This document shows positions 10,384 to 48,979 of a DNA stretch of 64,000 bases, in pieces. The position numbers and the translations under genes are program-made. This stretch comes from Kiritimatiellia bacterium (GTDB lineage: Bacteria > Verrucomicrobiota > Kiritimatiellia > CAIVKH01). The DNA lies in NCBI GenBank assembly GCA_023953695.1, contig JAMLJG010000003.1, forward strand, positions 106,885 through 170,884. The letters are read 5' to 3'. The notes below the pieces were generated by a model. That model did not search any database and was not told where the DNA came from. It saw only the letters and a list, made by a program, of their open reading frames with translations. The first letter of the stretch is position 1. Every line of letters begins with the position of its first letter.

Positions 10384-11640
10384 ATGAAGCATCCTTTGAA
10401 AATAGCGATCGGCTCCGACCACGGCGGATTCGAACTCAAACAGCAACTTATTCCTTATCTCACGAGCCTTGGCCACGCCGTCACGGACGTGGGAACCAAC
10501 AGCAAGGACGCCGTTGATTATCCCCGTTTTGCATACGCCGTGGCGTCCAGCGTGTCGAGCGGCAGAGCCGATGTAGGAATTGTGATTGATGGCGCGGGGA
10601 TTGGATCGGCCATGACGGCCAACAAGGTTCCCGGCGTTCTAGCTGCCGCCTGCTACAACGAAGCGCTGGCCAGGAACTCGCGCGAGCACAACAACGCCAA
10701 CGTCTTGACTTTGGGCAGCGGTCAAATTGACCTTGCCGCTGCGAAACAGATTGCTTACATTTTCTTAACGACCGAGTGCACGGCGGACCGCCACTTGGCG
10801 CGCGTTAAGCTGATAAAGGAAGTAGAAGGCCGATCTATGTCTGGAAATGATTTGTCGCCGGAAGATGTGCAACGGGTAGCAGAGCGAGTGAAGCAGCTCT
10901 TGGGAGGGAAAAGCGGCTCCAGCGCCGCCATAGCGCGCCCCCTTTCGGCTGAACAAGTGGCAAAAATGATTGACCACACCCTGTTGAAGGCCGAAGCGAC
11001 GCCTGCCGATGTGGAAAAGCTCTGTGCGGAGGCCAGGAAACACGGATTTTGGTCGGTCTGCGTCAACTCCGCCTATGTCAAACAGGCCAAGGCGCTGCTC
11101 CGCGACTCCCGCACCAAGGTTTGCGCCGTTGTGGGCTTCCCTCTCGGCGCCATGGAGCCGCAGATCAAATCCCTCGAAACACGCAAGGCGCTGCGCGACG
11201 GCGCGAACGAGATTGACATGGTCATCAACATCGGCGCGCTCAAAGCGCGGGATGATGCCACGGTGCTGCGCGATATTCGCGGCGTAGTGGAAAACTGCAA
11301 GGACAGCCGCGCGATTTGCAAAGTGATTTTGGAGACCTCCCTCCTGAACGACGAAGAAAAGACCCGCGCCTGCCAGTTGAGCATGAAGGCGGGCGCCGAT
11401 TTTGTGAAGACCTCGACGGGATTTTCGACGGGCGGCGCCACGGCGGAAGACATTGCGCTGATGGCGCGCACGGTTGCTTCCCGCAAGTTGGGCGTGAAGG
11501 CTTCTGGGGGCGTTCGGACATACGCGGATATTGTGAAGATGGTCAATGCGGGCGCCACGCGCGTCGGGTGTTCGAATAGTGTGAAAATCATGGAAGAGAT
11601 CAGCACCGGCGTCGCACAGTCCGGTGGCAAGGGATATTGA
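10384..11640 (+). CDS. Fusion protein: ribose-5-phosphate isomerase B (RpiB/LacAB family) joined to deoxyribose-5-phosphate aldolase (DeoC)
   Basis: The N-terminal half matches RpiB ([19 protein letters not shown]...). The C-terminal half matches DeoC ([11 protein letters not shown]...VCVNSAYV...[11 protein letters not shown]...VKTSTGF...[10 protein letters not shown]). The track start at 10360 is TTG; the ATG at 10384 fits the RpiB N-terminus. Confidence 0.85.
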
Positions 11641-11669
11641 ACAGTTCGGGTTAACTGAAGGAGAAGGTC

Positions 11670-12305
11670 ATGGCGGAACTACGGTGCTATGCGTTTATTG
11701 ATAGCTTGCAGCCACAATTTGCCTCGTTTTTGGGAACGGTGGCACAGGGGTTTCTCCCCACAACTCACCAGGCGGCGCTTTTTGTTGAAATCGCGCCCGG
11801 TATGGAGATCAACCGCGTAACGGATGTGGCGCTGAAGGCCACCAATGTGACGCCGGGCATGATGATCGTCGAGCGCTTGTACGGCATGCTCGAGATCCAC
11901 TCGCACTCGCAAGCGGACGTCCGTCAGGCGGGCCAGGCGATTCTCGACGCGCTTGAACTCAAAGAGGATGATCGCATTAAGCCCAAACTGCTGACGAGTC
12001 AGGTGATCCGAAACGTGTCGGACTATCACACGCAGCTCGTCAACCGCATGCGCCATGGCAATATGTTGCTGCCGGGCCACTCGCTCTATGTGATGGAGTG
12101 TGCGCCTGCGGGCTATGCCGCGATTGCCGCCAATGAGGCGGAAAAGGCGGCCAACATCAACATTCTCGAAGTTCGAGCCGTCGGCAGCTTCGGGCGCATT
12201 TATCTCGGTGGCGAAGAGCGCGACGTTGATGTCGGGTATCGCGCAGCCGAAAAGGCCTTGGAGGTCATTTCGGGTCGCGAGGAAAAATCGGGCCGAGGCG
12301 GTTAA
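11670..12305 (+). CDS. BMC shell protein, tandem BMC-domain type (BMC-T), divergent
   Basis: Two BMC-domain-like halves: VTDVALKATNVTPGMMIVERLYGMLEIHSHSQADVRQAGQA and AAIAANEAEKAANINILEVRAVGSFGRIYLGGEERDVDVGYRAAEKA. The RBS is GAAGGAGAAGG. Confidence 0.7.
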   Translation: MAELRCYAFIDSLQPQFASFLGTVAQGFLPTTHQAALFVEIAPGMEINRVTDVALKATNVTPGMMIVERLYGMLEIHSHSQADVRQAGQAILDALELKEDDRIKPKLLTSQVIRNVSDYHTQLVNRMRHGNMLLPGHSLYVMECAPAGYAAIAANEAEKAANINILEVRAVGSFGRIYLGGEERDVDVGYRAAEKALEVISGREEKSGRGG

Positions 12306-12347
12306 TCAACAACAACTCGTTAGCGAACAGAAAAGGGAGATACGCAC

Positions 12348-12647
12348 ATGGCAGAAGCACTAGGCATGATTGAGACGCGGTCATTTCCGGCCGTGGTGGA
12401 AGCGGCGGATGCGGCGGTAAAGGCCGCCAAGGTCGAGCTGGTTTCGTTCGAAAAGACCGGCGGCGGCTACGTCTCCGTTATTATTCGCGGTGATGTCGCA
12501 GCGGTAAAAGCGGCTTGTGACGCAGCGCAAGTTGCCGGCGGTCGCGTCGGTGAAGTTGTGGCTGTCCACGTCATTGCCCGCCCCCACAGCAATGTGGATG
12601 CGGTCTTGCCGTTGGGTCGCCAGGGCGAATCGAAAGCGAAGAAATAA
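12348..12647 (+). CDS. BMC shell hexamer protein (BMC-H, PduA/CcmK/EutM-like)
   Basis: [29 protein letters not shown]...[23 protein letters not shown] is the canonical Pfam00936-type sequence. The RBS is AAGGGAG. Confidence 0.92.
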
Positions 12648-12663
12648 GGCAATTGCGCGATCC

Positions 12664-12688
12664 AATTGCCAGTCGCGCACTGGCAATT
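12664..12688 (+). other. Perfect 10-bp inverted repeat hairpin (AATTGCCAGT-cgcgc-ACTGGCAATT) in the BMC-H/BMC-P intergenic space
   Basis: Read directly. It lies 17 nt after the BMC-H stop codon and 24 nt before the BMC-P start. Confidence 0.6.
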
Positions 12689-12711
12689 TCATCTAGCAAT
12701 TAGCAGATTTC

Positions 12712-13026
12712 ATGCAGCTCGCCCGCATAGTTGGATCGGTCGTCGCCACACGAAAAGAGCCCACGCTGAATGGGCTCCGATTGATGCTGGTTCGACCCTT
12801 GGACGACGCGGGCCGCGAGACGGGATCTGTGCTTGTCGCCGCCGATGCGGTTGGAGCCGGTGTGGAGGAAGTTGTCCTCATCGCCTCCGGCAGCTCGGCG
12901 CGGCAGACGCAGCAGACTGACAAGCGGCCGGTGGACGCCGTGATCATGGCCATCGTGGATTCCTGGGACGTGAACGGCGAAGAGAAATATCGAAAAAGTA
13001 AAGAAGTGAAGGTCGCGGAAGAATAG
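12712..13026 (+). CDS. BMC vertex pentamer protein (BMC-P, EutN/CcmL/PduN family), copy 1
   Basis: [30 protein letters not shown]...[11 protein letters not shown] is a typical EutN/PduN N-terminus. Confidence 0.85.
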
Positions 13027-13114
13027 TGATGTCGAATTGCACGCGATGCACGCGAATCAGCGTGCGCTCGTGTTGAACGATCATCCCCCGCGGCCTTCGA
13101 GTGGAGGCTAGTAC

Positions 13115-14557
13115 ATGGCACGTCTCACGGATGCCGATATTGACGCGATCGCGCGCAGAATTGTCGCGGATTTGGATCAGCGCCCTCTCGAGAGCGTCCC
13201 CGCTCCCGCCGCTGTTGCATCGGCGGACCGCGAGTTGGGCATCTTCCCCACGGTGGATGAAGCCGTCAAAGCGGCGCGCGAGGCACAGCCTGTTTTTGTG
13301 GCGCTTCCGCTCAAGAAGCGAGCGCAGATCATTGCCGCGATTCGATCGGTCATGCTGGAGAACGCGGCGATCCTCGCGAAGGCCGCTCACGAGGAGACCG
13401 GGCTGGGTCGCTTCGAAGACAAGATCACAAAGAATATTCTCGTCACCGAGAAGACGCCCGGCATTGAACACCTGACTCCGGAAGCCATCACGGGTGATCA
13501 CGGGTTGACGCTCATTGAACCCGCCCCCTTTGGCGTCATTGGCGCGATTACGCCCACCACAAACCCGACATCAACGATCATTTGCAACACGATTGGAATG
13601 ATTGCCGCAGGCAACACAGTTGTCTTCAACGTACATCCGGGCGCAAAGAATTGCTCCATGCAGACCGTGGCCTTGATCAACAAGACTATTGTTGCCAGTG
13701 GCGGGCCGCGGAACGTGGTCACATGTATTTCCAACCCCACCATCGAAAGCGCGGGGGCCTTGATGCACCACGCTCATATTCGCCTCGTGGTGGTCACCGG
13801 TGGCGGTGGCGTCGTGAAGGCGGCGATGAAGAGCGGGAAGCGTGCCATTTGTGCAGGCCCCGGCAACCCGCCCGTCGTGGTGGATGAAACCGCCGACATC
13901 GCCAAGGCGGGTCGCGATATCGTGCTCGGCGCCTCGACAGACAACAACATTATTTGCGCTGATGAAAAGCAGGTCTTCGTCGTGGATAAAGTCGCGGATG
14001 ATCTGCTGAAGTCCATGCAGCAAAACAATGCGGTGCTGGTGGATCGCAGCAAGCTGGCGGCTTTGGAAAAGGTCATCTTCACCGAGATGCACGGGCCGCG
14101 GCAGGAGGCGCACATCAATCGCGACCTGATCGGAAAGAATGCCGAGGTGATCCTGAGCAAGATCGGGATCAATGTGCCGAGTTCCTGTCGGTTGGGAATC
14201 GTCGAAGTGGATGAAAACCATCCCCTGCTATGGACGGAGCAAATGATGCCCATTCTCCCCGTCTGCCGCGTCTCGAGCTGCGATTATGCAATTGATCTCG
14301 CGCTCAAGACCGAAGGTGGCAATCGGCACACAGCGGTAATGCACTCCAAGAACCTTGATAAACTCCATCGCATGGCGAAGGAGTCGAACTGCAGTATTTT
14401 TGTAAAGAACGGGCGCTCGCAAGCGGGCTTGGGCTTGGATGGTGAAGGCTATGTCTCCTTCACAATCGCCAGTCCTACCGGTGAGGGGCTGACAGGCCCG
14501 CGCACATTTTCACGCTGGCGGCGATGCGTGCTCGTTGATCACTTTAGGATCACGTGA
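13115..14557 (+). CDS. CoA-acylating aldehyde dehydrogenase (PduP/EutE-like BMC signature enzyme)
   Basis: FGVIGAITPTTNPTSTIICNTIGMIAAGN...ICAGPGNPPVVVD matches the catalytic-Cys region of acylating AldDH. The N-terminal segment MARLTDADIDAIARRIVADL is an amphipathic helix followed by a Pro/Ala linker, which is encapsulation-peptide-like. Confidence 0.9.
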   Translation: MARLTDADIDAIARRIVADLDQRPLESVPAPAAVASADRELGIFPTVDEAVKAAREAQPVFVALPLKKRAQIIAAIRSVMLENAAILAKAAHEETGLGRFEDKITKNILVTEKTPGIEHLTPEAITGDHGLTLIEPAPFGVIGAITPTTNPTSTIICNTIGMIAAGNTVVFNVHPGAKNCSMQTVALINKTIVASGGPRNVVTCISNPTIESAGALMHHAHIRLVVVTGGGGVVKAAMKSGKRAICAGPGNPPVVVDETADIAKAGRDIVLGASTDNNIICADEKQVFVVDKVADDLLKSMQQNNAVLVDRSKLAALEKVIFTEMHGPRQEAHINRDLIGKNAEVILSKIGINVPSSCRLGIVEVDENHPLLWTEQMMPILPVCRVSSCDYAIDLALKTEGGNRHTAVMHSKNLDKLHRMAKESNCSIFVKNGRSQAGLGLDGEGYVSFTIASPTGEGLTGPRTFSRWRRCVLVDHFRIT

Positions 14558-15168
14558 TGAAGAAATACCCGGCCATGGCCGTGGTTGAATTTGGGGAAAT
14601 CGGGAAGGGAATGTTCGCCACGGATAAGATGTTGAAGAAAGCGCCCATCGCTTTCATCCGTTGCGGGACGATCAGTCGCGGCCGCTATCTCACGGCCATC
14701 GGCGGCAGCACGGCGTCCGTTGGAGAGTCGTTTGATGAAGGTCTCTTTTGGGGTGGAGATGCAGTGCTGGACTCGGTCCTCCTCGCTGACGTGCACCCGC
14801 AAGTTCACGATGCAATTCTCGGGCAACATCGCCCGCAAGGGCGCGGTGCGCTGGCAATCGTAGAAACGCAAACTGTCGCGTGCAATGTGCGCGCCGCTGA
14901 GTTGGCGCTGAAAGGGACGCCGGTCAATCTCATGGAACTGCGATTGGCCGATGCCGGCTTGTCCGGGAAGGGCCTCAGCATCTATGAAGGTGAATTGTAC
15001 GACATCGAAGCCGCGATGGACATTGTCAGCGGGTTCTTGGAGGCGGCGGGGAAGGAGTTGAATTATCAAATCATCTCCTCGCCTCACGAAGCATTGGACA
15101 CGCGGATCACCTCGCACAGTCTTTTCGGTACGGCTCGCATGATCGAACTGGAAGGAGAATCCGGCTAA
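14557..15168 (+). CDS. BMC shell protein, tandem-domain BMC-T, PduT-like
   Basis: Aligns by eye along its full length with PduT (…GKGMFATDKMLKKAPIAFIR-C-GTISRGRYLTAIGG… / …LDSVLLADVHPQVHDAI… / …ALAIVETQTVACNVRAAELALKGTPVNL…). A Cys lies near the PduT Fe-S ligand position. The start ATG 14557 overlaps the AldDH stop as TGATG. Confidence 0.85.
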   Translation: MKKYPAMAVVEFGEIGKGMFATDKMLKKAPIAFIRCGTISRGRYLTAIGGSTASVGESFDEGLFWGGDAVLDSVLLADVHPQVHDAILGQHRPQGRGALAIVETQTVACNVRAAELALKGTPVNLMELRLADAGLSGKGLSIYEGELYDIEAAMDIVSGFLEAAGKELNYQIISSPHEALDTRITSHSLFGTARMIELEGESG

Positions 15169-15443
15169 TGCTACTCGGTCGCGTCACAGGCACGGTGGTC
15201 GCTACGATTGTGTACGAAGGCATGAGCGGTGTCCCCCTGCTCCTCGTTCAGCCACTCGACAAAACTGGGCAGCCCAAAGGCAAGGTCCTGGTTGCGGCTG
15301 ACGCCACGCGCATGGCAGGTGTGGGCGAGCTGATCTACTACGAAGGCGGTCGGGAAGCCGCGATGGCGCTCGATCCTTGGTTTGTTCCCGTGGATCACGC
15401 CATCATCGGAATCGTGGATAATTTGAACACTCAGGAATCGTAA
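15168..15443 (+). CDS. BMC vertex pentamer protein (BMC-P), copy 2
   Basis: MLLGRVTGTVVATIVYEGMSGVPLLLVQPL...VLVAADATRMAGVGE. TAATG overlap with the upstream gene. Confidence 0.85.
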   Translation: MLLGRVTGTVVATIVYEGMSGVPLLLVQPLDKTGQPKGKVLVAADATRMAGVGELIYYEGGREAAMALDPWFVPVDHAIIGIVDNLNTQES

Positions 15444-15445
15444 GC

Positions 15446-15727
15446 ATGTTCACCGGACGCGTCATCGGCCATATAGATTCGACCATCAACCATCCGTGGT
15501 ATGACGCGAAGAAGCTGCTCGTCGTCGAAAAAACAGATGCATCTGGAAAAGCAGCCTCCGACTACGTGATTGCAGTGGACACGGTTGGCGCAGGCGTAGG
15601 CGAGCCCGTGCTGGTCCTCGATGAAGGAAATGGCGCACGCCAAATTGTTGCCTCAAGTGACGCGCCCGTTCGCTCCGTAATCGTCGGGATCATAGACGAA
15701 ATTCATTGCCCGAATTCGGGTTCCTGA
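15446..15727 (+). CDS. BMC vertex pentamer protein (BMC-P), copy 3
   Basis: MFTGRVIGHIDSTINHPWYDAKKLLVVEKTD...VIAVDTVGAGVGE. Confidence 0.85.
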   Translation: MFTGRVIGHIDSTINHPWYDAKKLLVVEKTDASGKAASDYVIAVDTVGAGVGEPVLVLDEGNGARQIVASSDAPVRSVIVGIIDEIHCPNSGS

Positions 15728-15740
15728 CTAGACTCGCTTT

Positions 15741-16916
15741 ATGCGTGTATTCCTTATCGTCCTTGATTCCGTCGGGATAGGACACGCGCCAGATGCCGCT
15801 GATTACGGCGACGAAGGTGCGGCCACCCTACCCCACATCGCAGAGGCCGTCGGTGGTTTGCACCTGCCGACTTTTCAGAAACTGGGACTGGGCAATATCC
15901 CGCCCGTAACGCCGCGCCCGTTTCCCATTGATGGCGTTGCTCCCGCCGAAAAACCCTTGGCAAGCTATGGCGCCATGCGCGAGATGTCACAGGGCAAAGA
16001 CACGGTCACCGGACACTGGGAAATAGCGGGCTTGTTGTTGCAGCCGGGGTTTCACTTGTTCCCTCCGGGTCCGCCGTCATTTCCGCCCGAGGTGGTTGCT
16101 GCATTTGAGAAGGAAACCGGTCGCAAGATATTGGGTAACAAGGCCGCCAGCGGCGTTCCGATCATGGAGGAACTCGGCGAGCAGTCTTCGCGCGAGGGCA
16201 AGTGGATCGTCTACACGAGCGCGGACTCCGTCTTTCAGATCGCGGCCAACATTGATTTGATTCCTCTGGAGGAACTCTATCGCGCGTGCGAAGTGGCGCG
16301 AAGGCTGTGCGATCCGCTTCGAGTGGGCCGAGTCATTGCGCGACCCTTCCGAGGATCGGCCGGCGCCTATCAGCGCACAGAAGATCGCCGCGACTACGCA
16401 TTTCAACCGGATGAGCCGACAATTCTCGAGCGCCTCCATTCATCGGGCGTTCCCGTGTATGCCGTCGGCAAGATCGAGGACATCTTCGCGCATCGCGGAA
16501 TTACGAAAACCGATCACACAGGCAATAACCACACTTCGCAAAAAGCGGTCGAACGCTTCGCAGCCGAGATGAAGCGGGGCTTCCTGTTCGCGAACTTCAT
16601 TGATTTCGACATGCTCTACGGTCACCGGCGCGACCCCAAGGGCTATGCAGAGTCTTTGGTTCAAACCGATCAGTGGCTGGCCTCATTTTTGCCAACGCTG
16701 AAGTCGAGCGATACGCTCATCATTACCGCCGATCACGGCAACGATCCCACTTACAAGGGAACGGATCATACCCGCGAGGTGGTCCCCCTGCTGGTTTATC
16801 AACCCGGACAAGTGGCACAGAATCTGGGGTTGCGAGAGGGTTACTACGACATCGCACAATCGGTCGCCTCGCAATTCGGAATAGATTCACTCCCGCGAGG
16901 TCAATCTTTTCTCTAA
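15741..16916 (+). CDS. deoB: Phosphopentomutase
   Basis: Collinear with E. coli DeoB: VLDSVGIGHAPDAADYGDEGAATLPHIAE...TGHWEIAGL...YTSADSVFQIAA...GRVIARPF...ITADHGNDPT..GTDHTRE. Confidence 0.9.
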   Translation: MRVFLIVLDSVGIGHAPDAADYGDEGAATLPHIAEAVGGLHLPTFQKLGLGNIPPVTPRPFPIDGVAPAEKPLASYGAMREMSQGKDTVTGHWEIAGLLLQPGFHLFPPGPPSFPPEVVAAFEKETGRKILGNKAASGVPIMEELGEQSSREGKWIVYTSADSVFQIAANIDLIPLEELYRACEVARRLCDPLRVGRVIARPFRGSAGAYQRTEDRRDYAFQPDEPTILERLHSSGVPVYAVGKIEDIFAHRGITKTDHTGNNHTSQKAVERFAAEMKRGFLFANFIDFDMLYGHRRDPKGYAESLVQTDQWLASFLPTLKSSDTLIITADHGNDPTYKGTDHTREVVPLLVYQPGQVAQNLGLREGYYDIAQSVASQFGIDSLPRGQSFL

Positions 16917-16940
16917 ACGCTAATAGAAAGAGGTGTCCAG

Positions 16941-18263
16941 ATGCTTCCTCAATGGATAATCGAAAAGAAACGCGATGGGCAAACGCTTACGGAAGAGGAG
17001 ATTCGCTTCTTCATTGACGCCTACGCGAAAGAAAAGTTGCCCGATTATCAGATGGCGGCTATGGCCATGGCGATCTTCATTCGCGGCATGAATCCGAAGG
17101 AAATTGCGATTCTTACCGATGCCATGATGCGGTCGGGCGACCTGATCAATACCTCCTCCATCAAGAAACCCAAGGTGGACAAGCACTCGACCGGCGGGAT
17201 TGGCGACAAGGTCTCGCTCATTCTGGCCCCCCTTGTTGCCGCGTGCGGGTTGGCGGTGCCGATGATTTCCGGGCGCGGCCTCGGCATCACCGGCGGCACG
17301 TTGGACAAACTCGAGTCCATTCCCGGCTATCGCACCAATTTGAGTGATGCGGAGCTGATCCGGGTAATCAAGAAAATCGGCTGTTCCATCATCGGTCAGA
17401 CCAAACAACTCGCACCGGCCGATAAGAAACTCTACGCGCTCCGCGATGTCACGGGGACCGTCGCTTCTATTCCCCTGATCACGGCCAGCATCATGTGCAA
17501 GAAGCTCGCAGAAGGCCTTGATGGACTGCTTCTCGATGTGAAGTGCGGCAAGGGTGCGTTCATGCGCACGCAAAAAGATGCGCGCGCACTCGCGCTGACC
17601 ATGGTGCGTGTGGGAAATGCCATGGGCAAGCGCATGGCTGCGGTAATAACCGATATGAACCAAACATTGGGCAACACAGCGGGCAACGTCCTTGAAGTCG
17701 TGGAGTCCATTGAAACCCTGCAAAACCGGGGACCGAAGGATCTCACGGAACTCACCCTCGTTTCCGCTGAAGAAATGCTGATCCTGGGGCGAATCACCAA
17801 GTCGCGCGCCACCGCGCGCGCCATGGCAGAAAAGGCGCTCGCAGACGGATCGGCATTCAGGATATTCCGCAAAATGGTGGAGCTGCAAGGGGGCGACGTC
17901 CGCACCATTGACGATCCCTCGCGCTTGGCACAGGCCAAATTCAAAGTTCCGATGCCCGCTCCAGCATCCGGGTTTGTCTCGCTCGCGGATGCGGAATCCG
18001 TCGGCAAAGCTTGCGTAGTCTTGGGCGCTGGGCGCACACGCACGGACGAAGCAGTAGATCCTGCCGTAGGTATATCGCATATCCTGCACATCGGCGATGC
18101 CGTCACCAAAGGCGCTCCGCTCTTGGTGATTCATGCGAACGACAAGAAGCGATTGGCGGCTGCTCAAGAACTCTTGAAAGGCGCCTTCAAGATAGCGAAG
18201 TCCAAGCCGAAGACACCGAAGCTGATTTTGGAACGTATCAACGGCGAAACGATTGGGAAATAA
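16941..18263 (+). CDS. deoA: Thymidine/pyrimidine-nucleoside phosphorylase
   Basis: The KHSTGGIGDKVSL signature, with the N-terminal helical domain and alpha/beta domain typical of DeoA/Pdp. Confidence 0.9.
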   Translation: MLPQWIIEKKRDGQTLTEEEIRFFIDAYAKEKLPDYQMAAMAMAIFIRGMNPKEIAILTDAMMRSGDLINTSSIKKPKVDKHSTGGIGDKVSLILAPLVAACGLAVPMISGRGLGITGGTLDKLESIPGYRTNLSDAELIRVIKKIGCSIIGQTKQLAPADKKLYALRDVTGTVASIPLITASIMCKKLAEGLDGLLLDVKCGKGAFMRTQKDARALALTMVRVGNAMGKRMAAVITDMNQTLGNTAGNVLEVVESIETLQNRGPKDLTELTLVSAEEMLILGRITKSRATARAMAEKALADGSAFRIFRKMVELQGGDVRTIDDPSRLAQAKFKVPMPAPASGFVSLADAESVGKACVVLGAGRTRTDEAVDPAVGISHILHIGDAVTKGAPLLVIHANDKKRLAAAQELLKGAFKIAKSKPKTPKLILERINGETIGK

Positions 18264-18265
18264 TC

Positions 18266-19102
18266 ATGATAGACCGCACAATTCTCGACCAGGCGCTCTC
18301 CCACGTTCGCGGAAAGTGGCCCCATGCCCGCCCACGCCTTGGCATGATTCTCGGTTCCGGATGGAGCGAGGTCATTGGCTCTTTCAACGTCAAGGACGCG
18401 ATTTCCTACGAGGATATTCCGGGCCTGGGCAAGACCGGAGTCGTGGGTCACGCAGGTCGCCTCGTACTCGCGGAATCGGCTGGATTGGAGTTGCTCGTCT
18501 TTCAGGGGCGACGCCACTTCTACGAAGGCGTGGGTTGGACTCCCATTGCGCTCCCGATCTTTCTTCTTAAATCGCTCGGCGCCAAGACACTCCTCGTGAC
18601 CAATGCCGCAGGCGGGGTTAGGAAAGACCTCGTTCCGGGGACACTGATGATCATTTCCGATCACATCAACTTTCTCGGAGCCAACCCGCTGGTCGGCGCA
18701 CACGACAGTTTTTGGGGGCCGCGATTCCCGGATCAGAGCGAAGTGTACAACGCGTCGCTTCGCAAATTGATTGTCCAAGCAGGACAGAACGCGGGCGAGA
18801 CGCTTGCCGAAGGCGTCTATCTGGCGGACTCGGGGCCGACCTACGAATCGCCCGCTGAAATACGCGCGTTTGCCGCGCTTGGAGCTGACGCCGTTGGAAT
18901 GTCCACCGTTCCCGAAGCCCTGCTGGCCAATGCTGCGGGCTTGCGCGTGGCAGGACTCTCCTGCATCACGAATAGCGCGGCTGGCATTAGCGAGAATCCG
19001 CTCAGTCACGAGGAAGTGACCGAGACCACTCGTCTTGCAATGGAGCGCATGAAGAAGGTGCTTCTCAACTTTGTCGAGGAGGTGGCTCGTGAGCGCCGCT
19101 AA
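18266..19102 (+). CDS. Purine nucleoside phosphorylase (PNP/MTAP family, PunA-type)
   Basis: The start is the internal ATG 18266 (MIDRTILDQ...). Family motifs: GSGWSE, TNAAGG, GADAVGMSTVPE. Confidence 0.85.
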   Translation: MIDRTILDQALSHVRGKWPHARPRLGMILGSGWSEVIGSFNVKDAISYEDIPGLGKTGVVGHAGRLVLAESAGLELLVFQGRRHFYEGVGWTPIALPIFLLKSLGAKTLLVTNAAGGVRKDLVPGTLMIISDHINFLGANPLVGAHDSFWGPRFPDQSEVYNASLRKLIVQAGQNAGETLAEGVYLADSGPTYESPAEIRAFAALGADAVGMSTVPEALLANAAGLRVAGLSCITNSAAGISENPLSHEEVTETTRLAMERMKKVLLNFVEEVARERR

Positions 19103-19508
19103 ATCCGCTCTCCCGCGCAGTCAGGCGTTGAAACTTCTCCGCGCCGCCGCCCAGGTATCGCGCAACGCACACGCGCCCTACTCTGCGTTTCAGGTGGGTG
19201 CGGCCCTGTTGACGGATACGGGCGCAGTCATCTCGGGTTGCAATGTCGAGAATGCCTCATACGGACTCACCATTTGCGCCGAGCGCAACGCGATTTTTCA
19301 TGCGGTCGCTGTGAAGAAGCGAAAGTTCAAGGCGGTGGCCATCGTTGCGAGCGGAAAGCAAATGCCTTTCCCGTGCGGCGCCTGCCGTCAGGTCCTCGCC
19401 GAATTCGGATCGCCGGAGATGGTGGTCCTCGTCGCGCCGCGCGCAAAGTTGGCCGATTATATGGAGCTAACGCTCGGCGAACTCCTGCCCCATTCCTTCA
19501 AGTTTTGA
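19071..19508 (+). CDS. cdd: Cytidine deaminase
   Basis: CAERNAI...PCGACRQ zinc-ligand motifs. The start is either ATG 19071 (overlapping the PNP 3' end) or GTG 19089. Confidence 0.85.
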   Translation: MSRRWLVSAAKSALPRSQALKLLRAAAQVSRNAHAPYSAFQVGAALLTDTGAVISGCNVENASYGLTICAERNAIFHAVAVKKRKFKAVAIVASGKQMPFPCGACRQVLAEFGSPEMVVLVAPRAKLADYMELTLGELLPHSFKF

Positions 19509-46216: not shown

Positions 46217-47381
46217 ATATCTCTCCGTCCCCGAAGTTATATTCTACCAACCCGTTGAGATGCAGCGTGAGGAATGCGACCAAGAGCCCCAACGCGGGGC
46301 CGCGATAGCTCGGCCACTGCCTTTCCGCACACCTCCACGCGCGCGTCAAATAGACAAATCCGACTCCCATCCAGAGGAGCCACGAGACCTCGCCCAGCCA
46401 GCCCAACTCCAAGCGCACTTGCATGGCATTGTTGTGCAGATGATTGAGCTTCTTCTGCACCGGAACCCTGTGCTTCGCCATGTCCTCATGAAGAACCGAA
46501 CGCCACCCCATCCCCAGTGGATACTCCTCAAATAGCGCGGGGGCCACATGGGTCCATAAAGAATAGCGGCCACCGCTGCGCACAGAAAACTCATCTCGCA
46601 ACTGCCCCACACGCGCCCGCACGGATGGGACAAATGACGCAGCAATGCCCAGGGCTAAGAGAAGAACCACCACGCGACGCCGATTCGTCAACAAGCTCAG
46701 CACCAGCACCGCGGCAACAGCAGAAAACCATGCGCCACGCTTGAAATGTAAGAGCAAGGCCAAAGCCGCAACGGCGAGCACGGCCAAAAGGAAAAGCGGG
46801 CGAAAACCCGGCGCGCGAACCAGCCAGAGGGCCAAAGCCAAGGCAATCGCAATGGCATAAAACTGCGGGTCTCGCATATTTCCCGCATCGAAAAGACTCG
46901 GGGGCACGTCAGATGTCGTCAGCGCTCCAGCCGACAACCCCGCATGATACGCGCGCAACTCCAAGAGATGACTAACGGGAATCCGAACACAATCGTAGGC
47001 CGCTTTGCTCGCGCAGCCGATGAGGAAGAGGAGGATCAACTTCCTCAGCAACACTTCTGAGGTCGTCGCGTCGCGCTTTCCCAAAAGGAGCGGAAAGACG
47101 AGCGGCACAGCAAGGAGAAGCAACCGATCCGTCTTGTGCAACCCCAGCGAGGGACGCACGCCAACAAATAGGCTGGCGAAAACCGCTACGGCGAACAAGG
47201 CAAGAACTGTAAACAGCGGCGCCCGAGTCACCGAGCCAAGCGATCCTCTCCCGCAGCCGATGATTGCGATCAGGGCGAACAGATAGGCCCAAATCTGGCC
47301 TGCCGCAATCGAGATGGGCAGCAGCGCTGCATGAATAAGCAGCAAAATCTCCAGGCTTCGGCTCTCCCAAGCTCGCTTCAC
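46128..47381 (-). CDS. O-antigen ligase/polymerase (Wzy_C)-like polytopic membrane protein
   Basis: Around 10 predicted TM helices with a periplasmic loop region. Overlaps the CCA gene 3' end by 89 nt, convergently. Confidence 0.5.
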   Translation of the reverse strand: MKRAWESRSLEILLLIHAALLPISIAAGQIWAYLFALIAIIGCGRGSLGSVTRAPLFTVLALFAVAVFASLFVGVRPSLGLHKTDRLLLLAVPLVFPLLLGKRDATTSEVLLRKLILLFLIGCASKAAYDCVRIPVSHLLELRAYHAGLSAGALTTSDVPPSLFDAGNMRDPQFYAIAIALALALWLVRAPGFRPLFLLAVLAVAALALLLHFKRGAWFSAVAAVLVLSLLTNRRRVVVLLLALGIAASFVPSVRARVGQLRDEFSVRSGGRYSLWTHVAPALFEEYPLGMGWRSVLHEDMAKHRVPVQKKLNHLHNNAMQVRLELGWLGEVSWLLWMGVGFVYLTRAWRCAERQWPSYRGPALGLLVAFLTLHLNGLVEYNFGDGEIFMLMNLILALGVAGWVMLRQPPDSCLDSA

Positions 47382-48979
47382 GGCGACTCCAAAAGCGCAT
47401 CCGCATACAAAGGCGAATGTTTCTTCACATAGGTCAAAACTGCTGTCCGCGTGTCCAGATCGAGAAGCTTAGTCCGTGTTTCCGGTCTCTCTGCAATTTC
47501 TCTCAACTTCTTGTATCGGCCCCCACCCGAGGCAAGCGCGTAGGAATTAATGGCCACTTTCAAGCGCTGGCGAGGATGGGGAATCTTCCCGTCCTTCAGC
47601 GTCAAATTGACGGGTTTGCGCGCGCCACCGTCCACAGTCTTCCACTGATACCGCGCACCGAAGAGGCCCATAAACGACATGGGTGAACGGACCGCGCCAT
47701 TTTCTTCGAGAATCTCCAACAACTCGCCGGGCGTCACCTGCAGAATGGCAACGCGATTTTCATACGGAACAATCCGCCAAATATCGGCCATCGAAAGATC
47801 GCCCGACGGCAGATCGTGCTCATCTAGCACGCCATGCAGCACCAAATCAGCGCCACTCGCCACAGCGAGCGCCCGAGCGATGAGCGACTGTATGGGCGAA
47901 CTCCCATACTCATCCGTCTTCCAAGCAATCCGCCCCTTCGCAGTGCCCACGCGCTGCGCCAGATAGGACTCCGCCCGCTTCAGATCCGATGAAAACTCGG
48001 CCTCCATCTCGGCATCGCGCGGCACCGCTTCATCAATCGCATGCAACTGGGCCGATTTGCGCGTTACGCGTTTGGCGACTGTGTCATAAACCAAATCCAA
48101 CTGACCCAACCACGCGCCATAATATCCCGCTTGGGTGTAGAGAACCCGATCCTCAAGCCAGATTTCCGGAATCGGCTGATGGGTATGCCCCCCAATAATA
48201 ACATCGAACTCGGGAAACGCTCGGGCAACGGCATTGATCTCGTTGGCGTGATCATCGCCACGGCGTTTGCATCCTTGGTGGGCAGCCAACAACAAAACGT
48301 CGGGCCTTTCAGCGCGAACGGCCGGCATCACACGCTTCAAAGCATCAATGGAGCGTTCAAACATCGCATCGCCGAGCAAATCGGGTGTGGACCATGTGGG
48401 AACACCGGGTGTAATCAGGCCCACAATTGCAACTTTGATTCCGTCCACCTCGCGAATCAAAAACGGCTGTACGCGAGGAAATGGATGGGGCCGACCCGGC
48501 CTCGAAACGATGTTGGCCGCCAGCATCGGGGTGCTCGATGCATGGAGCAGACGCTGCATCTTTTCCAACCCCCAGTCAAACTCATGATTGCCCAGAATCC
48601 ACGCGTCGTAGCGCAACCAATCCAGCGCGCGAATCATGATGCGCCCTTGTGTCAAATAGCTCTCGGCTCCCCCCTGGTAGAGATCGCCACAGTCGAGGAG
48701 CAAGGTGTTGGGGCGCGTGTCTCGGAGTTGGCGAATTTGCGTAGAGGCGCGCAACAATCCGCCCACGTTTTCACGCCCATCATAGTCCGTTGTGGGCAAG
48801 ATGTGCCCATGCAGATCCGTCGTGTGTAAAATCGTCAGCTCGACCTGGCGAGCATTACTGGCAAATGAGCACGCGCCGAAAATGCAGATCGTCGCAACGC
48901 GAAGAGCGAAACGCCAACGACTATGCAATCTTGAGGTGATCGTCTGGAATACCCAAGGCATGGCGATGTGCAGCCACAA
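47378..48979 (-). CDS. Secreted bifunctional metallophosphatase/5'-nucleotidase (UshA-like)
   Basis: Signal peptide. Metallophosphatase motifs [13 protein letters not shown] and GNHEFD. The C-terminal 5'-nucleotidase domain is present. Confidence 0.8.

Follow-up and report, generated by a model that had tools for sequence, protein, structure and literature searches.

A conserved amphipathic helix joining the RpiB-like and DeoC domains of a microcompartment fusion protein is a putative internal encapsulation peptide

The window analyzed here is a 64,000-nt stretch of contig JAMLJG010000003.1 from a Kiritimatiellia bacterium (assembly GCA_023953695.1). It carries a sugar-phosphate-utilising (SPU, SPU3-like) microcompartment (BMC) locus of about 11 genes at positions 10384-19508, the first of which encodes an RpiB-like (RPI) domain fused to deoxyribose-5-phosphate aldolase (DERA/DeoC). 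The features of the locus are as follows (AldDh, aldehyde dehydrogenase; EP, encapsulation peptide).

10384-11640, plus strand: rpiB-like/deoC fusion gene, opening the BMC locus; 418 aa plus stop (translation, Pfam, homologues)
10396-10833, plus strand: RPI domain, aa 5-150 (Pfam; alignment to solved RpiB 3HE8/3PH3; invariant columns)
10834-10851, plus strand: upstream spacer, aa 151-156; poorly conserved and modelled as disordered
10852-10902, plus strand: conserved amphipathic helix, putative internal EP, aa 157-173 (hydrophobic moment, AF2, conservation, homology to N-terminal helices of unfused DERAs)
10903-10941, plus strand: downstream Gly/Ser/Ala/Pro-rich spacer, aa 174-186; poorly conserved, variable in length and modelled as disordered
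10942-11637, plus strand: DERA domain, aa 187-418 (Pfam; solved DERA 8QPS; invariant columns)
11670-12305, plus strand: CcmP-like double-stacking tandem shell protein (BMC-T dp); E = 2e-77 to CcmP 5LSR/4HT5
12348-12647, plus strand: BMC-H hexamer shell protein (PF00936, E = 6e-28)
12712-13026, plus strand: BMC-P pentamer shell protein 1 (PF03319, E = 3e-31)
13115-14557, plus strand: AldDh, 480 aa, with N-terminal extension (PF00171, E = 1.4e-36)
13124-13174, plus strand: EP-like helix at the AldDh N-terminus, LTDADIDAIARRIVADL, followed by a Pro/Ala-rich linker (sequence, motif, profile)
14554-15168, plus strand: PduT-like tandem shell protein (BMC-T s); PF00936 twice, E = 4e-27 to PduT-type chains
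15168-15443, plus strand: BMC-P pentamer shell protein 2 (PF03319)
15446-15727, plus strand: BMC-P pentamer shell protein 3 (PF03319)
15741-16916, plus strand: phosphopentomutase-like enzyme (DeoB-type, Metalloenzyme superfamily)
16941-18263, plus strand: pyrimidine-nucleoside (thymidine) phosphorylase, DeoA-type
18266-19102, plus strand: member of the purine-nucleoside phosphorylase family (PNP_UDP_1); translation is likely to begin at the ATG at 18266, just past the deoA stop, the mechanical ORF opening at 18011
19071-19508, plus strand: cytidine deaminase

The locus brings together a DeoC-type aldolase (pfam01791), AldDh and shell genes, the combination that marks SPU loci. Its RpiB-type pfam02502 protein is fused to DERA as in the published SPU3 chimera loci, and its triplet of BMC-P proteins, BMC-T s, CcmP-like BMC-T dp and AldDh with an N-terminal helix are those of SPU3, so that we call it SPU3-like by gene content only. 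PTAC, PduS and alcohol dehydrogenase were not found among the window ORFs scanned, the 30-64 kb part being scanned in part. The phosphopentomutase-like enzyme is presumably cytosolic because it has no EP-like extension. The gene order of fusion, BMC-T dp, BMC-H, BMC-P, AldDh, BMC-T s and two BMC-P is kept across related loci that carry the fusion. The CcmP-like gene lies downstream of the fusion in 53 of the 59 fused loci, and in five of the remaining six the contig breaks off at or close to the end of the fusion gene; this gene adjoins shell genes wherever the contig allows.

The fusion gene is translated without interruption into 418 aa, in which Pfam recognizes LacAB_rpiB (PF02502) at aa 7-144 (E = 7.5e-48) and DeoC (PF01791) at aa 192-390 (E = 8e-19). 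Because homologues begin with MKHPLKIA and the frame remains open for only eight more codons upstream, translation is likely to begin with the ATG at 10384. An N-terminal EP masked by a wrong start was ruled out on the same grounds. An identical protein is on record as MCO6400383.1, from six contigs; a 90% cluster-mate of this entry is labelled Kiritimatiellae. Both Pfam domains are present in 120 of the 120 listed homologue clusters (at least 65% identity). Among the 80 best species-level genome loci, 59, distributed over more than ten phyla, have the two domains in one uninterrupted frame, and the remaining 21 have RPI and DERA as adjacent separate genes with RPI directly upstream. This adjacency makes an artefactual join by frameshift, mis-assembly or read-through of neighbouring genes conceivable in principle, but such an origin is next to impossible given the identical protein on six contigs, the recurrence in every listed cluster and in 59 independent genomes, and a linker that is both in frame and conserved. 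Translation, Pfam and homologue clusters therefore confirm the RpiB-DeoC fusion proposed in the first-pass annotation.

The C-terminal domain aligns with the solved DERA 8QPS (E = 7e-74), which together with the PF01791 match places it in the DERA family with its TIM-barrel fold, and it is modelled by AF2 at a pLDDT of ~90. D278 (EIDMVIN), K313 (CKVILET) and K342 (FVKTSTG) are invariant, and solved DERAs have the same residues at the aligned positions; they match D102, K167 and K201 of E. coli DERA, its catalytic Asp and Lys and the Schiff-base Lys (roles as in PMC11585597), as in a class I aldolase. The C-terminal tail ends in GKGY.

The N-terminal domain belongs to the RpiB fold and sequence family, with a match over the full PF02502 model and an E value of 3e-38 to solved RpiB 3PH3/3HE8. 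The catalytic base of RpiB (Cys66 in E. coli) is missing: 'givi C gtglg' in 3HE8/3PH3 reads 'givi D gagig' in the fusion, where Asp69 stands opposite the C. thermocellum RpiB Cys in the alignment and is invariant across 32 fused homologues. The alternative base of M. tuberculosis, a Glu, is also absent, its position being Ser75 by motif reading. On the other hand, the remaining residues of the RpiB site, D12, H13, H102, N103, R136, H137 and R140, do not vary within the family; from the alignment and published RpiB structures, we take these to be the equivalents of E. coli Asp9, His10, His99, Asn100, Arg133, His134 and Arg137. With the other active-site and phosphate-binding residues in place, the domain may still bind a ligand or have altered catalysis. 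An SPU6 RPI orthologue with the same Cys-to-Asp change has negligible ribose-5-phosphate isomerase activity (PMC11585597), which, with Asp69 at the catalytic position, weakens the earlier suggestion that the domain channels ribose-5-phosphate. Judged by its residues, the RPI domain is less likely to be a ribose-5-phosphate isomerase than a partner in packaging or in a complex, or an enzyme with a non-canonical activity.

The first-pass annotation had placed an 18-aa amphipathic helix and a GGKSGSSAA spacer at about nt 10830-10950 between the two enzymes. Both lie there, the helix at nt 10852-10902 and GGKSGSSAA at aa 174-182 (nt 10903-10929); the helix is amphipathic as claimed, but it comprises 17 aa by sequence (aa 157-173) and aa 159-173 in the AF2 model. 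Its mean hydrophobic moment of 0.63 (16 residues, Eisenberg scale, 100 degrees) was attained in 87 of 10,000 shuffled versions of this stretch, and V162, V165, A166, V169, L172 and L173 line up on one face. In the AF2 model, both domains of the fusion are confident and the helix stands isolated (pLDDT ~50-56) between flanks of pLDDT <50 (aa 153-158 and 174-183). The pTM of 0.54 fits two modelled domains without a fixed mutual orientation, and at this pLDDT the model says nothing on the contacts of the helix. The segment has the size of an EP, an amphipathic α-helix of ~15-20 residues. Its position departs from the terminal location of EPs, with 156 residues before the helix and 245 after it.

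Conservation sets the helix apart from the spacers and puts it level with the catalytic domains. In the alignment of the 32 fused homologues (65-91% identity), the mean top-residue fraction is 0.75 for the helix against 0.36 and 0.35 for the upstream and downstream spacers, and 0.78 and 0.83 for the RPI and DERA domains; L157, D161, R164, I165, R168 and V169 are each at least 94% conserved. The spacers, of variable length, thus resemble the poorly conserved flexible linker of an EP. The same helix motif occurs in all fused linkers of the 59 loci. Ordinary DERAs of 220-235 aa, from the representative library and the PDB, lack the helix and align only from ~aa 189 of the fusion, as expected of a feature absent outside BMCs, these short DERAs being taken by length and not by individual BMC context.

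The unfused loci show where the helix came from. In all 21, the N-terminal extension of DERA begins with an equivalent amphipathic helix, and independent unfused DERAs in the 50% representative library also carry an N-terminal helix, for example MNERDALIERITREVLARLQG. Such terminal helices on separate-gene orthologues had been named as a point against the first-pass reading; they were indeed found, but they point to the origin of the internal helix and not against its being an EP. On the unfused RPIs, too, an N-terminal helix is present and is followed by a linker (MTMITDAELKALVEKVVQRTM, for instance). Fused RPI domains have no such extension and begin ~0-7 residues from the first ATG; in many cases a stop codon precedes this ATG by 1-7 codons. 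RPI is therefore without its own helix exactly in the fused genes, as one shared targeting signal would predict. Relatives with long linkers have a Cys-rich segment (a 4-Cys cluster in many) and, behind it, a G[AV]xR[hydrophobic] element, both of which are absent from the window protein.

A similar helix lies on a second cargo candidate of the locus. The AldDh N-terminus reads MARLTDADIDAIARRIVADL, and its helix and that of the fusion have the pattern L-[ST]-x-x-[DE]-[IV]-x-x-[IV]-A-x-R-[IV] in common. The AldDh N-terminal motif is conserved in 46 related loci. When an HMM built from these N-termini was run on 58 fused proteins, the best hit fell within the linker in 41 of them; the linker makes up ~19% of their length, and the loci are related and non-independent. 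Run against the window, the same HMM gave a significant match only to AldDh, and the fusion helix ranked second among 721 six-frame ORF fragments with E = 1.8. The pattern, which was derived afterwards from both helices, hit three sites in the six-frame translation of the window: the fusion, the AldDh N-terminus and 17340-17390. The last site was rejected as another EP; it lies inside the folded thymidine phosphorylase and is regarded as a chance or fold-internal match.

Both the fusion and the EP reading of its helix are already published. Axen et al. 2014 (PMC4207490) were the first to report the RPI-DERA fusion, in Marinimicrobia, and Dwyer, Sutter & Kerfeld 2024 (Commun Biol 7:1562; PMC11585597), whose SPU3 chimera is represented by Verrucomicrobia bacterium ADurb.Bin018, viewed the internal helix as an EP. 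Like that chimera, the window fusion has an N-terminal RPI without an N-terminal EP, a C-terminal DERA, Asp at the catalytic Cys position of RPI and an interdomain helix derived from the DERA extension and proposed as an EP; the loci are alike in their CcmP-like BMC-T dp, BMC-T s, BMC-P triplet and AldDh with an N-terminal EP (PMC11585597). The window fusion comes from another organism and has another sequence (MCO6400383.1), and it is likened to the representative by published description. Its locus carries deoB, deoA, PNP and cdd directly downstream, an arrangement common to only 1-3 of the 59 fused loci. Against the 20 SPU3 loci in PMC11585597, the fused loci counted here number 59 of the 80 best species-level loci in more than ten phyla.

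The unfused DERA of SPU6 (Chloroflexi bacterium GWB2_54_36, PMC11585597) likewise has an extension that starts with an amphipathic helix absent from non-BMC DERAs and homologous in position and motif. That extension is terminal, spans ~70 aa and includes, besides a longer helix, an additional element modelled in the paper as two strands, whereas in the window protein the helix is internal and only the helix and a 13-aa spacer are kept. The classical EPs, as summarized in PMC11585597 from Kinney et al. 2012 and Aussignargues et al. 2015, are found at the N-termini of PduP, PduD and EutC and the C-terminus of CcmN. They share with the window helix an amphipathic stretch of ~15-20 aa, a poorly conserved flexible linker, absence from homologues outside BMC loci and related motifs on several cargo proteins of one locus; they differ in being terminal, and several have been found experimentally necessary or sufficient for targeting, whereas the window helix is putative and lies between folded domains. 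The RPI domain recalls catalytically impaired cargo organizers such as the γ-carbonic-anhydrase domain of CcmM and the EP-bearing inactive AldDh copies in GRM loci (PMC11585597). Its canonical catalytic Cys is missing, but the domain is strictly conserved and physically joined to the signature enzyme; in contrast to these organizers, all its other RpiB active-site and phosphate-binding residues are invariant.

On balance, we think it likely that the gene encodes the signature enzyme of an SPU (SPU3-like) compartment, with DERA behind an RpiB-like domain and a formerly N-terminal DERA helix joining the two and acting as an internal EP. Judging from sequence, the conserved amphipathic helix probably targets both RPI and DERA to the BMC. 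One signal for both domains, as the first-pass annotation had proposed, is supported by the conservation and amphipathicity of the helix, its isolation in the predicted structure and its homology to N-terminal DERA helices, and further by the loss of the RPI helix in fused genes, the AldDh motif and the absence from ordinary DERAs; what does not agree with the usual picture of an EP is the internal position.

From these observations, we infer how binding, encapsulation and metabolic flow might follow. In-frame fusion of an upstream rpiB-like gene would have made the former N-terminal extension of DERA internal, and all that would remain of this extension in the window lineage is a 17-aa amphipathic helix with a flexible spacer on either side. 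As an EP, the helix may turn its hydrophobic face toward the shell, the AldDh N-terminal helix or both, so that RPI-DERA and AldDh would condense together and be enclosed by the shell. [quoted passage not shown]

Alternatively, the helix could be a structural or interdomain element only, which packs on DERA or sits at an RPI-DERA or oligomer interface, while encapsulation is achieved in another way, such as hitchhiking on AldDh with its EP or contacts made by the surfaces of the folded domains. The strong conservation of the helix would suit any binding role and not shell targeting specifically. We nevertheless consider this unlikely. The window lineage has kept the helix alone and dispensed with the Cys-rich segment and the G[AV]xR[hydrophobic] element; AF2 gives a low-confidence helix between disordered spacers with no confident docking; and the missing N-terminal helix of fused RPIs is as a shared signal predicts. 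A similar motif on the AldDh N-terminus is, moreover, hard to square with a structural role specific to DERA.

The motif common to the fusion and AldDh would also agree with a helix that drives cargo-cargo condensation, with the AldDh N-terminal helix or with itself, and leaves the shell to join via another contact. According to PMC11585597, EPs not only bind shell tiles but also cause core proteins to aggregate and render proteins insoluble, and it is the extension that makes full-length SPU6 DERA insoluble. Condensation without shell binding seems to us very unlikely; sequence data do not separate the two, and it is more a sub-mechanism of an EP than an alternative to one.

Within the preferred reading of the helix as an internal EP, RPI might be a working partner of DERA, a role that would need the sugar-phosphate site and not the Cys base, and the fusion with its single internal EP would load a fixed 1:1 two-enzyme module. 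RPI could, for instance, open the furanose ring of deoxyribose-5-phosphate or otherwise present this substrate to the aldolase. We hold a working RPI partner of this kind to be rather improbable.

SPU compartments are among the most widespread BMCs, and their presumed role is the recycling of deoxyribose from DNA debris. To judge from the counts given above, most loci of this family in many phyla seem to have the fused form. To our knowledge, the EPs tested experimentally so far are terminal, and our literature search on internal EPs gave nothing relevant. If the internal helix is a working EP, targeting signals need not be terminal; this would account for the loading of a two-domain fusion by one signal and be useful for engineering multi-enzyme cargo, points on internal targeting that have already been raised in print, and the helix would be the first case of a natural EP demonstrated to function internally. 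The window adds another clean example, which combines the shortest form of the linker with a complete deoxynucleoside-catabolic gene set beside the shell genes and would for that reason be a convenient test system.

The first-pass annotation's claim of an RpiB-DeoC fusion at 10384-11640 on the plus strand is borne out by an uninterrupted open reading frame of 418 aa, in which Pfam recognizes a complete RpiB/LacAB domain (RPI; aa 7-144, E = 7.5e-48) and a DeoC aldolase domain (DERA; aa 192-390, E = 8e-19). An identical protein is on record from a Verrucomicrobiota MAG (MCO6400383.1), and its 90% cluster-mate is labelled Kiritimatiellae. Both domains were present in all 120 homologue clusters listed (at least 65% identity), and therefore an artefactual fusion was ruled out. 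The catalytic positions of the aldolase domain (D278, K313 and K342) are invariant. In E. coli DERA, catalysis depends in part on a C-terminal Tyr carried by a flexible tail. The fusion terminates in GKGY (aa 415-418, window 11626-11637), and a Gly-Lys/Ser-Gly-Tyr tail is found in about half of the aligned homologues and missing from the others.

Alignment to solved RpiB structures places the end of the C-terminal helix of this domain at about aa 150, and canonical DERAs start at the position equivalent to about aa 189. The interdomain region consists of a 6-aa spacer, a 17-aa helix and a 13-aa Gly/Ser/Ala/Pro spacer, and contains both strings quoted in the first-pass annotation:

10852-10902, plus strand: 17-aa helix, aa 157-173 (from the sequence)
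10903-10929, plus strand: GGKSGSSAA, aa 174-182 (from the sequence)

The helix is amphipathic: its hydrophobic moment is 0.63, a value that 87 of 10,000 shuffles attained, and one face is formed by V162, V165, A166, V169, L172 and L173. Among 32 fused homologues, its conservation is close to that of the catalytic domains (mean top-residue fraction 0.75 vs 0.78 and 0.83), and the two spacers vary both in sequence (0.36 and 0.35) and in length. An AlphaFold2 model built with a 32-sequence alignment was confident for both domains (mean pLDDT 84.9; pTM of the fusion 0.54), assigned residues 159-173 to a low-confidence helix (pLDDT ~50-56) and gave pLDDT <50 for the flanking segments 153-158 and 174-183. 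This model fits the picture expected of two domains linked by a tethered helix that would have no fixed position.

We compared the best 80 species-level loci, one genome per species. A single open frame encodes both domains in 59 of the 80, from phyla including Acidobacteriota, Verrucomicrobiota, Kiritimatiellae, Lentisphaerae, Planctomycetota, Marinimicrobia, Calditrichota, Fibrobacterota and Elusimicrobia. In the remaining 21 loci the genes are separate, with RPI directly upstream of DERA in 19 and the contig beginning within DERA in the other two. Every fused linker carries the helix motif, roughly L-S-x-x-D-h-x-R-I-A-x-R-V-x-x-L-L. The N-terminal extension of unfused DERAs opens with an equivalent amphipathic helix, which is also found on independent unfused DERAs in a 50% representative library. 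Unfused RPIs have their own N-terminal amphipathic helix and linker; fused RPI domains begin at the protein N-terminus, in many cases a few codons after a stop.

Linker lengths are bimodal, with a short class of 33-65 aa, to which the Cys-free linker of the window fusion belongs, and a long class of 80-186 aa. Most long linkers keep the G[AV]xR[hydrophobic] element seen in the extensions of unfused DERAs, and roughly one in three also contains a four-Cys cluster. This cluster occurs in 22 of the 80 DERA linkers or N-terminal extensions (e.g. CTDLACTFCQVC and CTEECADGICVHTC; outside the window, L025 8418-8690, L072 8440-8688 and L041 4494-4754), is followed in related loci by the conserved G[AV]xR[hydrophobic] element, and could be a metal, Fe-S or disulfide site; where the main text of PMC11585597 mentions cysteines, it deals with different points. 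Among loci L001-L023, the fusion is closest at species level (63-69% identity) to proteins from Thermoanaerobaculia/Acidobacteriota, Holophagales, Lentisphaerae and Kiritimatiellae, and identity falls to 54-59% for Verrucomicrobiia and Opitutales. This distribution suggests a Kiritimatiellae-like PVC source, horizontal movement of the locus, or both.

The aldehyde dehydrogenase (AldDh) of the same locus starts with MARLTDADIDAIARRIVADL (LTDADIDAIARRIVADL at window 13124-13174) followed by a Pro/Ala-rich linker, and this N-terminus is a predicted encapsulation peptide (EP). For the sugar-phosphate-utilising (SPU) microcompartments, N-terminal EPs have been predicted on AldDh in all subtypes but SPU6 (Dwyer et al., PMC11585597). 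The motif M-x-R-L-T-D-x-E-I-x-x-I-A-R-R-I is conserved at the AldDh N-terminus in 46 related loci, and the pattern L-[ST]-x-x-[DE]-[IV]-x-x-[IV]-A-x-R-[IV] is common to AldDh and the fusion helix. An HMM of AldDh N-termini had its best match inside the linker, ~19% of the length, in 41 of 58 fused proteins, a count that overstates independence because the loci are related. In the window fusion the HMM matched the helix, ranking 2 of 721 six-frame fragments at a non-significant E of 1.8. An EP-like pattern derived afterwards from the fusion and AldDh helices also matched LSDAELIRVIKKIGCSI (17340-17390), which was taken as a chance or fold-internal match because it lies within the folded domain of pyrimidine-nucleoside phosphorylase.

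The fusion gene opens a cluster of 11 genes, identified by sequence matches:

10384-19508, plus strand: whole cluster; 5′ part, in order: RPI-DERA, CcmP-like BMC-T dp (E = 2e-77 to CcmP), BMC-H, BMC-P, AldDh, PduT-like BMC-T s, two BMC-P
3′ part, plus strand: phosphopentomutase-like protein, pyrimidine-nucleoside phosphorylase, purine-nucleoside phosphorylase family protein, cytidine deaminase

Both flanks carry housekeeping genes: PpiD-like, RNase III, XerC/D-like and PurC genes lie upstream, and type II secretion genes lie downstream on the opposite strand. By gene content, the cluster matches an SPU bacterial microcompartment (BMC), specifically as described for SPU3 (PMC11585597). Related fused loci keep the order from the fusion to the last BMC-P; the CcmP-like gene is downstream of the fusion in 53 of 59, and in five of the six others the contig breaks off at the end of this fusion gene or close to it. 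The full deoxynucleoside-catabolic set (15741-19508) lies downstream of the last BMC-P gene, also on the plus strand, and none of its four enzymes has an EP-like extension. Among the 59 fused loci, all four genes are downstream only in L003 (Lentisphaerae), with partial sets in L011 (deoB only) and L031 (deoA and PNP). A 5′-nucleotidase-like protein (47378-48979, minus strand; Metallophos and 5_nucleotid_C), encoded ~28 kb away from the BMC cluster, could release nucleosides from nucleotides. Phosphotransacylase (PduL), PduS and alcohol dehydrogenase were found neither in 10384-19508 nor among the other ORFs scanned, which covered 30-64 kb in part, and thus a route for CoA and NAD+ recycling is not evident. 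Dwyer et al. suggest that acetyl-CoA leaves such compartments via the BMC-T dp pore (PMC11585597).

In the RPI domain, Asp69 occupies the position of the catalytic Cys (Cys66 in E. coli) and is invariant in the fusion family, as are the remaining RpiB active-site and phosphate-binding residues. All SPU RPIs share this substitution, and the SPU6 orthologue had negligible R5P isomerase activity and formed a stable 1:1 complex with DERA that brought DERA no kinetic benefit (Dwyer et al., PMC11585597). The proposal that RpiB channels ribose-5-P is therefore weakened by Asp69 and the SPU6 activity data. The domain may serve in packaging or have a non-canonical activity; that the Asp variant is truly catalytic or presents substrate, in a role coupled to DERA through the fusion, seems improbable.

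The RPI-DERA fusion with an internal helix is already known: an aldolase-isomerase fusion was noted in Marinimicrobia SPU loci (Axen et al., 2014; PMC4207490), and the chimera was reported in 20 SPU3 loci with a Verrucomicrobia representative modelled (Dwyer, Sutter & Kerfeld, 2024; PMC11585597). The internal EP proposed in the first-pass annotation is thus an independent rediscovery of a published hypothesis, and computational support for this interpretation is good. Our analysis adds that the fusion occurs much more widely than in those 20 loci, that its linkers fall into short and long classes, and that AldDh and the fusion share a helix motif, none of which changes its already-known status.

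The helix is most likely an EP that once stood at the DERA N-terminus and became internal after the upstream rpiB-like gene joined, so that it would now serve both domains. We infer shell or cargo binding by the helix, which together with the similar AldDh peptide would bring cargo into the shell. Deoxyribose-5-P would presumably be made in the cytosol by the nucleoside phosphorylases, deaminase and phosphopentomutase encoded downstream; inside the compartment, DERA would cleave it to glyceraldehyde-3-P and acetaldehyde, and AldDh would turn the acetaldehyde into acetyl-CoA.
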